Position numbers and translations under genes: made by a program
The notes under the pieces: generated by a model
What the model was told of the DNA's origin: nothing
Databases searched by the model: none
What the model saw: the letters and a program-made list of their open reading frames with translations, nothing else
Shown: in pieces, positions 1-3,815 of the stretch
Layout of the letters: every line of letters starts with the position of its first letter
Numbering within the stretch: position 1 is the stretch's first letter
Assembly (NCBI GenBank): GCA_018650795.1
Contig: JABIFG010000231.1
Span: forward strand, 1,153 to 65,152
Reading direction: 5' to 3'
DNA from: Fidelibacterota bacterium
GTDB lineage: Bacteria > Fidelibacterota > UBA8477 > JABMPR01
DNA: 64,000 nucleotides

Positions 1-22
1 AAACGATTCACCTGGAGCAGCC

Positions 23-946
23 GTGATGGTAATCCACAAGGGGGAAATCATGCTTGAACGTCATTATGGCCTGGCTAACATAGAACAAAAGACCGAGGTT
101 TCTTCAACGACGAACTTCAGGTTGGCTTCAGTCACCAAGCAATTTACTGCCATGGCGATTCTGCAGCTCATGGATAGTAATAGGCTGACATTTTCAACTG
201 GGCTCAAAGATGTGTTTCCCGAATTTCCTGACTATGCGAATTCCATCAACTATGGGCAACTACTTCATCACACATCTGGACTCATAAATTATGAAGACCT
301 CATCCCTGATTCCGCTACGATCCCCGTTAGAGATGCTGATATTTTGACAATATTAATCGCTCAAGATAGCACCTACTTCCCCCCTGGCTCTGCTTACCAT
401 TATAGTAATGGAGGATATGTCTTACTGGCACTTACCGTTGAACGCTTGTCTGGCCTGAGTTTTCCCGATTATCTTGAGCAATATATATTCGCACCAACCG
501 GGATGACAGGATCAGTGGCTTATGTCAATGGTACGAATAACATTTCCAACCGCGCCCTGGGTTATAATATTGTTAATAATGGGACTGAATTTAGTGACCA
601 GAGTATGACCTCCTCTGTTTTGGGTGATGGAGGTATCTATTCATCTGTGTCCGATTTGTACAAATGGGATCAAGCTCTGTACAAGTTCGAGCTTCTCTCG
701 GAAGCATGGCTTGATTCCGCCTATACACCGTGGTTAAAGAACTATGGCTGCGGTTGGCGCATTGAAGATTACAAGGGGTTGAAGCGTATTAGCCATACAG
801 GAGGCACCTGTGGATTTAGGACAGATTACATGAGATTTCCTGAATCTGAATTTTCAGTAATTGTATTGACAAATAGACGTGAACCAGGTGTACAGTATCT
901 TGCTGAAGCACTTACTGACATCTATTTATTAAGCGAAAATGACTAA
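23..946 (+). CDS. Serine hydrolase, beta-lactamase class C/AmpC-like family; 5' end probably cut off by the window edge
   Basis: SxxK (FRLASVTKQF), YxN (YHYSNGGY) and HTG (SHTGG) motifs, plus LLHHTSGL. The frame is open back to position 2 (NDSPGAAVMV). Confidence 0.9.
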   Translation: MMVIHKGEIMLERHYGLANIEQKTEVSSTTNFRLASVTKQFTAMAILQLMDSNRLTFSTGLKDVFPEFPDYANSINYGQLLHHTSGLINYEDLIPDSATIPVRDADILTILIAQDSTYFPPGSAYHYSNGGYVLLALTVERLSGLSFPDYLEQYIFAPTGMTGSVAYVNGTNNISNRALGYNIVNNGTEFSDQSMTSSVLGDGGIYSSVSDLYKWDQALYKFELLSEAWLDSAYTPWLKNYGCGWRIEDYKGLKRISHTGGTCGFRTDYMRFPESEFSVIVLTNRREPGVQYLAEALTDIYLLSEND

Positions 947-1488
947 TCCTCACTGAACCGGGGTTCTAACTCTATCCCCAAACCATCAGCCATACGATTG
1001 ACGAAGGCAAAATATGATGTAATGGCACAGATGTCATGTATACCACGGTCATCAAGATTTTGTGCCCGAAGGAGATCGATATCCTCCTTACTGATACTAG
1101 CAGGCGTTCGAGTCAACTTGACTGCATAGGTAAGTATGGCTTTATCCTGGGGATTTAAAGAGGGATGATCCCCTATCTCAATCAAACCAGATAATAACGA
1201 GTTAGGATTTTCGAAAGAAGTTCGTTTTGAGCTTAGAAGTCTGCGGAGCCCAGCCCCGTGGTGTTCAATTCAGTAGTGACACTCATTAATGGCAGATACA
1301 ACCACAGCAATCATCTCCCGTTGAATACGCGTCAAGGGACCTTTCTTGTACATCAACTCCTTATACAATGTAAAGTGATGGCGCATGACCTCGCTATGCA
1401 CTCCATGGATGCGCAGAATATGATCCTGGTCGTTCACGCGATTTGCTTCAGGAATATCACTTGGATCTACATATTTAATAAATGCCAT
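943..1488 (-). CDS. AhpD/CMD-like peroxidase-related protein, probable selenoprotein (181 aa, UGA read as Sec at codon 73, C-H-Y-U)
   Basis: ORFs 1270..1488 and 943..1185 are in the same frame, separated only by TGA at 1270-1272. Read-through gives REMIAVVVSAINECHY-U-IEHHG...YAVKLT...YFAFVNRMADGLG, a complete AhpD-like sequence with CxxCxxxH register. Confidence 0.85.
1244..1258 (-). promoter_or_regulatory. Candidate bacterial SECIS hairpin
   Basis: CGGGGC-UGG-GCUCCG, a 6-bp stem with a G-containing loop, starts 11 nt after the in-frame UGA. Confidence 0.6.
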
Positions 1489-1603
1489 GAAGTCTCTACC
1501 TTCTTTACCAGATTTTATTAAGTAGCTGATTCAGTATAGTACAAACAGTTTACGATTACAATAAGTGTGAAAGCTCGTACAGGTATTCTGGATTATGATT
1601 TTA

Positions 1604-2542
1604 TCAGTGATCAGCTCTGTCGAAAACACCTGCAGTATTCACTGCGATCATTAAATAAGGAGCTGGTTGAGTCCCGTCAGGAAAGCCATTTGAAGATGAC
1701 CATGCAATGAACGGCAAGCCCAATCTAATTTTAATGCTTTCCCAAAATGGTTTTGAGATTGCTAAATCTATTCCAGCTGATGATGAAGCAAGAATTCGTT
1801 TCTCACGCGTACCCGTCCATATGGAAGGAGGCGCAAGCAATTGTTCAGACTCCAGTTGGACAAATGGTGCTATGAAAATTGGATACCAAGTGTGTATTGA
1901 AGATGATATATGAATTACAGAGAGATGATCGCTGAGAATATTATCCTGAACAGCAGTGTTTTTCTGATATAACCAACTGACCGAGAGCGAACCCAATAAA
2001 TCAGGATTGAATTCAGCCCAGGGCATGGGTTGATTGTACAATAGCAAAATGTCGCCAGATGGACTTACTTCAGAAACAAAAGGGAATTCATCGTTGAGAT
2101 ATTTTGTTTGACCAGGTAGATTAATCTTAAACTGTGCATAAGCTCTACCTCTATTCCCCAGAGCCATTCTTAATCCGGTCGATAATCCGCCAGAGTATGA
2201 TATGGTTCTACTCTCTAGATAAGTTACCCTCTCCTCAAGGGAGCCGAGACCGCCATACCCGTTTATAAAAAGAACATTTCTGGGACTGATGGAGCGTGAC
2301 ACTTCAATGAAAGCATTCAGTTGGGGTCCATAATAAATATTGCCTGCAGGACCTCTATTCGAGAGCTGAACATCTGACATCCAATGCCAATTATTATCAC
2401 CCATTAAAGTGTTGGGCCAGTGCGCTATCCAATTGTTCATCAATGCTCCACCACCGGCTTGACCACTACCCACAGGCGAGCAACAAACCTGAGCATTTAC
2501 AGAGGTGGCCAGCAGCAAACCTAATAAAAGGTTTCTAATCAT
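1604..2542 (-). CDS. Hypothetical exported protein, possibly a beta-barrel, with an N-terminal Cys-Cys motif
   Basis: Signal peptide MIRNLLLGLLLATSVNA followed by QVCCSP. Alternating hydrophobic, strand-like segments. Start overlaps the upstream stop (ATGA). Confidence 0.6.
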   Translation of the reverse strand: MIRNLLLGLLLATSVNAQVCCSPVGSGQAGGGALMNNWIAHWPNTLMGDNNWHWMSDVQLSNRGPAGNIYYGPQLNAFIEVSRSISPRNVLFINGYGGLGSLEERVTYLESRTISYSGGLSTGLRMALGNRGRAYAQFKINLPGQTKYLNDEFPFVSEVSPSGDILLLYNQPMPWAEFNPDLLGSLSVSWLYQKNTAVQDNILSDHLSVIHISSSIHTWYPIFIAPFVQLESEQLLAPPSIWTGTREKRILASSSAGIDLAISKPFWESIKIRLGLPFIAWSSSNGFPDGTQPAPYLMIAVNTAGVFDRADH

Positions 2543-3579
2543 CCTGTAATAATCTCCACATCTGGATAAAAAGCAGCAACTGAAAACCAGTAGGCAATAT
2601 ACCCATTCCCTGCAACCAACCTTTCAGCCGGAGTCGGATTTGATAGCAATTGACCGGTGATGTCCCACTCTTTCCCCGTATCTGCCTGAGTCAGAACGAT
2701 TCCCGCTCCAGAAATATCCCAGCTTGAAATACTGATGGCCCGGGTCGTCTCAAAAGCTACCGCAATATTGTCTCTTCCGGATACAACTGCTTTGTATTGT
2801 GAATCCCCAACATCAACAGTAATAATCTGTGGATCAGGATAAGCATCAATATCCAGAGCCTTCACTACATCACCGTTAATTATAGTCAGAACTCGATTCT
2901 TGGCGGGTAAACGATTGTCCTCATGTGCTAATGGGAAATAAATGAAATCACCACAGGACAGAGAGTTGCAGGTGCGATAATTTCCATAAGGATAGCGACT
3001 ATAGTTGCGTGAGTAATTCGTTTCAGAATTCACTACCTTGGTTTCTGGAAAAAGTGCTTTCCAGTTACCCCAGCTAGTCTCTACAAGATTCTTTAGATGC
3101 AATTCTCCACCAGACCTGTCACCTGCTGCAGATCGGAGTAACATTTGTGGCCAATAACTTTCTGTCTCCCGATCATACATAATCAGATTGCTGTTAAAGA
3201 GCAGACCTGAAACGCCATATTCTCCTGATGTGGATAAATGAATTGCGCTACCGGTCAAAGGACAATACGAAATACTATAACCGGATTCGTTAATAATCTC
3301 ATGCCAATCCAGGATGGCGTGTGGGTATGCAACGTGTTCTGAACCATTCCATATTCCAACCACGAGATCATCATCATCCAGATAGCCCAAATTGGATCCA
3401 TCCGCTGAGGATCGATTTGGATTTTCAAGGCTGGGTATACAGTCTCGGCCATCATAACAGCCCTGCCGCATAAACTGTGTGTCAATGGTCCAGGTTAATC
3501 CCGAGTCATCAACTCCTACATCACTCTCCTGACATCCAATAAAGAACACAACCAGAGCTAAAGGGGTTAATATTCTCAT
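2539..3579 (-). CDS. DUF3179-family lipoprotein
   Basis: Lipobox FIGC. Family motifs AYPHAILDWHEIIN, SYCPLTGS, GVSGLLFNSNLIMYDRETESYWPQ and YWF...AFYP. ATG at 3579 follows GGAGG. Confidence 0.85.
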   Translation of the reverse strand: MRILTPLALVVFFIGCQESDVGVDDSGLTWTIDTQFMRQGCYDGRDCIPSLENPNRSSADGSNLGYLDDDDLVVGIWNGSEHVAYPHAILDWHEIINESGYSISYCPLTGSAIHLSTSGEYGVSGLLFNSNLIMYDRETESYWPQMLLRSAAGDRSGGELHLKNLVETSWGNWKALFPETKVVNSETNYSRNYSRYPYGNYRTCNSLSCGDFIYFPLAHEDNRLPAKNRVLTIINGDVVKALDIDAYPDPQIITVDVGDSQYKAVVSGRDNIAVAFETTRAISISSWDISGAGIVLTQADTGKEWDITGQLLSNPTPAERLVAGNGYIAYWFSVAAFYPDVEIITG

Positions 3580-3815
3580 CGGCACCTCCAATATTTGTTA
3601 TATTAACATTGGTTCATTTTGACTGAATATTATAGTTTCAAACAGCTATTGTGATTGTCTTCTGACCGACAATTGGGAGAAGATGTTAAATAGATTACCG
3701 TGCCTTTACGAACCAGAAATAAGACTTCTCAAATTCCCAGAACCCTGCATGGTTTCCTTGATTCATAGATCGAATTCTCTATCTTGATGTCAGTATTGAT
3801 TAATATGAATGAGGA

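Follow-up and report, generated by a model that had tools for sequence, protein, structure and literature searches.

A UGA-interrupted gene in a Fidelibacterota genome predicted to encode an AhpD-like selenoprotein

Can two short open reading frames (ORFs) separated by a TGA codon be the two halves of one gene? This question is raised by a locus of a Fidelibacterota bacterium (assembly GCA_018650795.1, contig JABIFG010000231.1), from which a stretch of 64,000 nucleotides, positions 1,153 to 65,152 of the forward strand, was analysed; this whole stretch is called here the window. A first-pass annotation, made from the letters of the window, had joined two ORFs at 943..1488 into a hidden AhpD-like peroxidase, with selenocysteine (Sec, U) in its active site and, just behind the TGA, a hairpin resembling a Sec insertion sequence (SECIS). 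We consider it very probable that one gene, at 1488..943 on the minus strand, encodes a 181-residue AhpD-like selenoprotein, in which the UGA at codon 73 is decoded as Sec and for which a redox function is proposed. The elements of the locus, in window coordinates, are the following:

943..1488, minus strand: whole gene, predicted AhpD-like (TIGR01926 'peroxidase-related') selenoprotein; 181 sense codons, Sec codon 73
1270..1272, minus strand: in-frame UGA, codon 73, predicted to be read as selenocysteine; TGA in 192 of 196 aligned loci
1270..1488, minus strand: upstream piece, a 72-aa ORF ending at the UGA, as given by a standard gene caller (table 11)
943..1185, minus strand: downstream piece, an 80-aa ORF starting from an internal TTG, as given by a standard caller (table 11)
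1258..1281, minus strand: predicted redox motif C70-H-Y-U73-I-E-H-H77 (CxxU...H), at the start of model helix 71-87
1244..1258, minus strand: hairpin CGGGGC-UGG-GCUCCG, starting 11 nt after the UGA, over codons H77-G-A-G-L-R82

The gene starts with an ATG at 1488..1486 and stops with a TAG at 945..943, and the TGA at 1272..1270 is its sole in-frame interruption. As the first-pass annotation had stated, the 72-aa and 80-aa ORFs share one frame on the minus strand, and the 28 codons between the TGA and the TTG start of the second are open; these codons begin IEHHGAGLRRLLSS... Translation of TGA as U gives the anticipated 181-aa product with its C70-H-Y-U73-I-E-H-H77 motif, and its N-terminus, MAFIKY, is common to full-length homologues. 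The GC-rich hairpin that had been described 11 nt after the UGA was also recovered, at 1258..1244.

How constant is the TGA at this codon? Over 196 related, partly overlapping loci, the aligned codon is TGA in 192, TGT in two, TGC in two and TGG in none, which agrees with the earlier expectation that orthologues would carry either UGA or a Cys codon here. Among 41 related genomes, 20 gave a match; 17 of the 20 matches, down to 39% identity, contain exactly one in-frame TGA, and the remaining three (36-41% identity) contain no TGA. When the best 80 of 589 relatives from genome contigs were aligned pairwise, TGA stood at the aligned codon in 80/80. The record titles of these 80 loci name about ten higher taxa; they include Acidobacteriota, Gemmatimonadota, Planctomycetota, Chloroflexota, Calditrichaceae and Ignavibacteria, and further Desulfosarcina, Synergistaceae, Lentisphaeria, Eisenbacteria, Fidelibacterota and Neomarinimicrobiota. 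Within the phylum, 80 of 301 sampled genomes had a match at E <= 1e-10. By hand count, 73 of the 89 matches in those 301 genomes carry one TGA and 16 carry none, one of the 16 being a fragment that ends short of codon 73. The position is one where homologues have Cys: this is the case in the solved proteins 2oyo and 2pfx, in four of the 196 loci and in 54 database relatives. The in-frame UGA almost certainly encodes selenocysteine.

A few orthologues carry an extra stop besides the TGA: a TAG in L025 (G015:C4), a TAA in L205 (G247:C151), and one each in L050 and L091. Gene decay, sequencing errors or overrun of the alignment may account for them. Nine genomes of the phylum (G073, G076, G094, G145, G149, G279, G283, G290 and G297) hold two TGA-bearing copies of the family each, of which one is ~45-52% and the second ~32-36% identical to the query.

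Decoding of the UGA as Sec requires a dedicated machinery, and the presence of selA, selB, selC and selD had been proposed as a check. In the genome (4.42 Mb in 356 contigs, 91% complete) all of them score above curated cut-offs: selA with 507.2 bits, selB, adjoining selA, with 346.1 bits, selD with 370.6 bits and itself containing one in-frame TGA, and tRNA-Sec with 72 bits, called SeC with anticodon TCA by ARAGORN. The claim that the organism uses selenocysteine is therefore upheld. RF2 is also encoded (509 bits), the only tRNA-Trp has the anticodon CCA, and the sole tRNA with a TCA anticodon is tRNA-Sec. Moreover, 10 of the 41 non-overlapping window ORFs of at least 200 aa end in TGA, five of these 10 in ATGA. 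TGA is thus an ordinary stop that is recoded at particular sites, and the statement that there is no genome-wide recoding was right.

Other UGA-containing genes were noted in the same genome. In selD (L001, G000:C121:52678-53601, plus strand) the TGA lies in A-A-G-U-A-G-K, and a 7-bp hairpin, GUCCAGG-GGA-CCUGGAC, is found 13 nt after the UGA. A deiodinase-like gene (L203, G000:C232:35859-36416, minus strand; PF00837, 85.5 bits) is interrupted by one TGA, within F-G-S-F-T-U-P-P-Y, which is followed after 14 nt by a 6-bp hairpin. Both hairpins are G+C-rich and have small G-containing loops. This marine lineage would use selenocysteine in at least three genes, namely selD, the deiodinase-like gene and the AhpD-like gene. 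A naive genome-wide scan for UGA-interrupted genes was abandoned as too noisy, with 1747 candidates and 276 left after a fold filter.

To what extent is the hairpin a conserved RNA element? Folded alone it has an energy of -8.4 kcal/mol. It is encoded within the H-G-A-G-L-R peptide, where only synonymous-site and compensatory changes separate RNA constraint from protein constraint. Pairs were counted over 96 distinct 48-nt sequences starting from the UGA, with a 7-pair stem named by ourselves (columns 14-20 with 24-30). In this set 84.4% of the cells pair, compared to 36-55% after a shift of the partners by 1-3 columns, and changes on both sides are seen in five of the seven stem pairs. Double-change cells number 27 versus 10.7 in shuffles, and 0/500 shuffles reach as high. 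Covariation in orthologues, which had been suggested as a further check, was looked for and found, above all 500 shuffles and above the slid controls. Of 179 distinct TGA sequences, 154 form all five core pairs and a further 17 form four; the four loci with a Cys codon form just 2-3 of the five. In addition, synonymous codon choice was compared with that for the same amino acids elsewhere in the same 96 genes, and every bias goes in the direction of pairing:

His at U+4: CAC in 89 of 96 (elsewhere 63%)
Gly at U+5: GGR in 81 of 85 (elsewhere 42%)
Leu at U+8: CTC in 83 of 96 (elsewhere 29%)
Arg at U+9: CGT in 69 of 89 (elsewhere 10%)

These comparisons point to a conserved SECIS-type stem-loop just 3' of the UGA. 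As in the bacterial SECIS of E. coli fdhF, it is a stem-loop that lies within the coding region about 11 nt past the UGA and has a guanosine in its small apical loop; fdhF follows an 11-nt spacing rule and has a GGUC loop. It differs from the fdhF element in the loop itself, which is UGG in the window and a 5-nt loop of the CGGGU type in most orthologues, and in having no Rfam match; binding by SelB is predicted. Some Planctomycetota sequences form the stem in a shifted register around a GGUC-type loop. In the Cys-form locus L040 (G027:C3), the 63 nt that follow the Cys codon take up another fold, a highly stable long-range structure of -29.4 kcal/mol unrelated to the hairpin.

Which protein would the read-through produce? 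It matches TIGR01926 of NCBIfam ('peroxidase-related enzyme') with 107.3 bits for a cut-off of 81.8, over residues 24-174, and C70-H-Y-U73 supplies the CxxU motif that characterizes TIGR01926 and the 'AhpD-like protein' selenoprotein family. The Pfam CMD domain is matched at 2.9e-11 and the AhpD core domain TIGR00778 at 43.6 bits (cut-off 27.8). By these profile scores, the predicted product is a member of the TIGR01926/COG2128 branch of the carboxymuconolactone-decarboxylase (CMD)/AhpD superfamily and not of AhpD proper. A distant relative is the alkylhydroperoxidase-related (seleno)protein NF041238, 'AhpD_rel_CFYUT', which shares the CxxU; the window gene is not a member of this equivalog, with 54.8 bits for a cut-off of 175 and a match to only the C-terminal half of the 357-position model.

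Sequence searches of the PDB returned 2oyo, 2pfx, 3c1l, 2prr and 6k40 with E = 1e-21 to 1e-16. In the alignments given for 2oyo and 2pfx, the site is occupied by CxYC, with the second Cys opposite codon 73. An AlphaFold model made from 55 homologues (pLDDT 93.8, pTM 0.90) consists of eight helices, has the all-helical AhpD/CMD fold and places residue 73 in the first turn, at the N-terminus of helix 71-87. In Foldseek, the model aligns with solved peroxidase-related entries at TM 0.78-0.86 (2prr, 2oyo and 6k40 at 0.85). Fold and active-site spacing would thus be shared with DR1765 of D. radiodurans (6k40) and with 2oyo, 2pfx, 3c1l and 2prr, although identity to DR1765 and the structural-genomics entries in the structural alignments is only 25-33%. 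In contrast to the Sec predicted here, 2oyo and 2pfx have Cys, and the PDB chains carry no selenocysteine. In an alignment of 55 Cys-bearing homologues, H38, E58, Y72 and H77 occur in every row, and C70 and H76 in almost every one; as the rows were picked for Cys after hits with W, S, R or G had been seen, Cys at column 73 is invariant by construction and only the other invariant columns count.

We propose that the hairpin 11 nt downstream would recruit SelB carrying Sec-tRNA(Sec), and that this complex would compete with RF2 at this single UGA, with selD, selA, selB and tRNA-Sec supplied by the genome. Sec73 would replace the second Cys of the CxxC motif at the helix N-terminus and could act as the nucleophile of a selenol/thiol couple with Cys70, with assistance from Glu58 and His77, which are conserved. 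In such a scheme, peroxide defence would involve alternation of the protein between its reduced state and one in which Cys and Sec are joined as a selenenylsulfide; hydroperoxides may be its direct substrates, or it may restore a partner peroxidase to the reduced state. The peroxide-defence step is put forward because of the family name and because of DR1765: as related in the passages available to us (PMC8945050, citing Zhao et al. 2020), the D. radiodurans mutant is H2O2-sensitive and its complementation depends on the CxxC. From sequence and model, then, we infer both selenium incorporation and a peroxide-related function. Of the 'Sec peroxidase' named in the first-pass annotation, the Sec part is supported; 'peroxidase' follows from family membership, and the branch is that of TIGR01926.

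Could the protein be a selenoprotein with other chemistry of the superfamily, for example reductive dehalogenation or another type of thiol-disulfide exchange? We regard this as possible but unlikely. Most of the nearest proteins of known structure are structural-genomics entries carrying the label 'uncharacterized peroxidase-related protein', the debrominase Bmp8 is also matched by the model (TM 0.75) and by sequence (E = 0.0057), and no peroxiredoxin is a conserved neighbour, AhpC-TSA being seen in one of 150 flanking frames. A 2026 review also states, in the part available, that the exact functions of such proteins are unknown (PMC13188914). On the other hand, DR1765, the only tested close homologue, has a phenotype of H2O2 sensitivity, and the peroxidase-related entries are structurally closer than Bmp8 (TM 0.85 vs 0.75). 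The residue roles in M. tuberculosis AhpD fall to a Glu/Cys/Cys/His set, and this set is conserved here. A broader version, in which the whole family is a Sec-dependent reductase for another substrate (for example Bmp8-like dehalogenation) or in which a 'UGA plus SECIS' cassette has spread across phyla, seems improbable to us; the cassette idea comes from the 15-nt hairpin core, which is nearly identical in about ten higher taxa. If it were true, the marine bacterium studied here would possess a non-peroxidase reductase in addition to its deiodinase-like selenoprotein.

The other explanations concern the TGA itself. That it is a true stop, leaving a pseudogene or two separate small genes, is what standard gene calling with its two ORFs suggests, and it accords with the normal use of TGA as a stop in this genome and with the further stop in a few orthologues (the TAG of L025, the TAA of L205). 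However, a disabling stop would not persist at one codon in 192/196 loci and about ten higher taxa. The protein is conserved on both sides of the TGA, which falls exactly at the catalytic Cys of homologues; the second ORF, starting 28 codons past it, would lack the active site; and the genome has the full Sec machinery. We find this explanation very hard to sustain. It is likewise highly improbable that the UGA is read as Trp, Gly or Cys through an alternative code or near-cognate suppression: W is found in 21 and G in one of the database proteins of the family at the Sec position, but RF2 is present, tRNA-Trp has CCA only, the sole TCA tRNA is tRNA-Sec, long window ORFs end in TGA (10/41) and TGG occurs in 0/196 loci. 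As for the possibility that TGC or TGT was misread or misassembled as TGA, the assembly is fragmented (356 contigs), but contigs from two DNA runs, which may be its source, and from two RNA-library runs of two studies cover codon 73 and all carry TGA with no other letter (4/4), neither TGC nor TGT. The same TGA stands in related genomes, and the chance of such an error appears negligible.

Several observations nevertheless weigh against the reading of the locus as an AhpD-like selenoprotein gene with a peroxide-related role. The 196 loci are related by descent and some overlap, L029 and L042 for instance being one piece of DNA, so that their counts overstate independence. All four runs are assembled contigs and show the presence of TGA, not transcription, transcript ends or level; one RNA-library contig spans only 993-1645, and the gaps flanking it prove nothing. 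With regard to the hairpin, the 61-nt stretch around it is no stabler than shuffles (z = 0.09), so that its support comes from comparison with other loci and not from folding energy. RNAalifold gave no consensus structure on the 96-sequence alignment, and an Rfam scan of 900-1600 with E up to 10 returned three hits at chance level and no SECIS family. The hairpin also lies on a conserved peptide, and its conservation is thereby confounded with protein constraint.

The likeness to AhpD proper is likewise restricted. The protein shares with M. tuberculosis AhpD (1knc) the core domain TIGR00778, and the spacing C-x-x-C-x-x-x-H, with a Glu lying 12 residues ahead of its first Cys, is a pattern that we take to be common to both. 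It belongs to a different subfamily, however: it reaches 17.9 bits for the 191.95 required by TIGR00777 (AhpD proper), and the M. tuberculosis structures (1knc, 1lw1) align at only TM 0.47-0.53. AhpD is described, in the source as available, as working with AhpC and lipoamide, a partnership without support here. For the gene neighbours, the longest frame between two stops was chosen on either side of a locus, and 150 of the 155 frames obtained, covering 78 of the 80 loci from genome contigs, were scanned with Pfam; among these 150 no recurrent partner was found.

How is such a gene represented in databases? Thirty-eight of 120 listed relatives (P0002-P0121) have at most 125 aa, and 36 of the 38 have their first residue no more than four positions from the HHG located just after the Sec. 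Judged by where they begin, these short relatives are split gene calls, C-terminal fragments as foreseen by the claim that standard callers would split the gene. Among the 80 listed database relatives that carry the motif, the residue at the Sec position is C in 54, W in 21, S in two, R in two and G in one. The 21 W proteins count as a further point against Sec, as does an exact-match test in which no locus was found to encode any of them exactly. When metagenome DNA was searched with one W-bearing protein (P0003), the 80 best relatives (48-85% identity) had TGA in 79 cases, TGC in one and TGG in none. Of the three outcomes that the first-pass annotation had named as refuting (missing Sec genes, TGC or TGT at this codon, Trp in orthologues), none came out against its reading. 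We infer that gene callers using codes 4 or 25 on short contigs are the best explanation of the W and G letters; since no exact DNA for the W proteins was found, this origin is deduced from their relatives. Standard pipelines thus split the gene, and others write W or G at the Sec site (22 of the 80 listed motif carriers), with the result that the active site is lost from catalogues. The value of the finding is mainly for annotation.

Is the family itself new? An earlier statement that AhpD-like selenoproteins had been reported is correct. In the portions available of the papers concerned, the 2005 Sargasso Sea survey describes the 'AhpD-like protein', with CxxU and COG2128, as a new selenoprotein family of 27 sequences with a predicted SECIS (PMC1088965). 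The 2008 Global Ocean Sampling (GOS) study counts 299 sequences of 'AhpD-like 1', the fourth most abundant selenoprotein family (PMC2398784), and the 2026 review lists the AhpD-like protein with TIGR01926 and CxxU (PMC13188914). The window gene agrees with what these portions say of the family in scoring above the TIGR01926 cut-off, in a CxxU with Sec second, in a bacterial SECIS-type hairpin just after the UGA with a G in the small apical loop, and in marine habitat (here by run labels). No difference of substance from the family appears in them, and the genus includes a Candidatus Neomarinimicrobiota record. The gene is a plain further member of a selenoprotein family that is already known and in print since 2005; accordingly there is nothing new in it. 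The family is among the most abundant marine selenoprotein families, and this gene adds no lead on substrate or reductant.

Finally, the surroundings of the gene were examined. One more feature was recorded upstream of it:

1533..1561, minus strand: promoter-like site TTGTAA-17-TATACT, ~45 nt upstream of the ATG; weak

The scan of the region for promoters and terminators gave three promoter-like sites for 2.4 expected, which is not above chance. At its 3' end the gene lies tail to tail with a convergent beta-lactamase-fold gene (2..946, plus strand); the stop codons overlap at 943-946, which leaves no intergenic room for a terminator. The other genes flanking it in the window encode a 312-aa protein without Pfam family, a DUF3179 protein and a PpiC rotamase. 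Among the flanking frames of the related loci, PALP occurs four times, Glyoxalase_3, Peptidase_M28, EF-G, AAA_26 and a few others twice each, and DUF3179, Beta-lactamase and AhpC-TSA once each; many of these frames have no family, and some in G+C-rich DNA may be shadow frames. The 312-aa ORF and the DUF3179 gene upstream (window 1604-3591, minus strand) overlap by 4 nt. DUF3179 is also found beside the orthologue in L056, and a beta-lactamase-fold gene flanks L042, as in the window.

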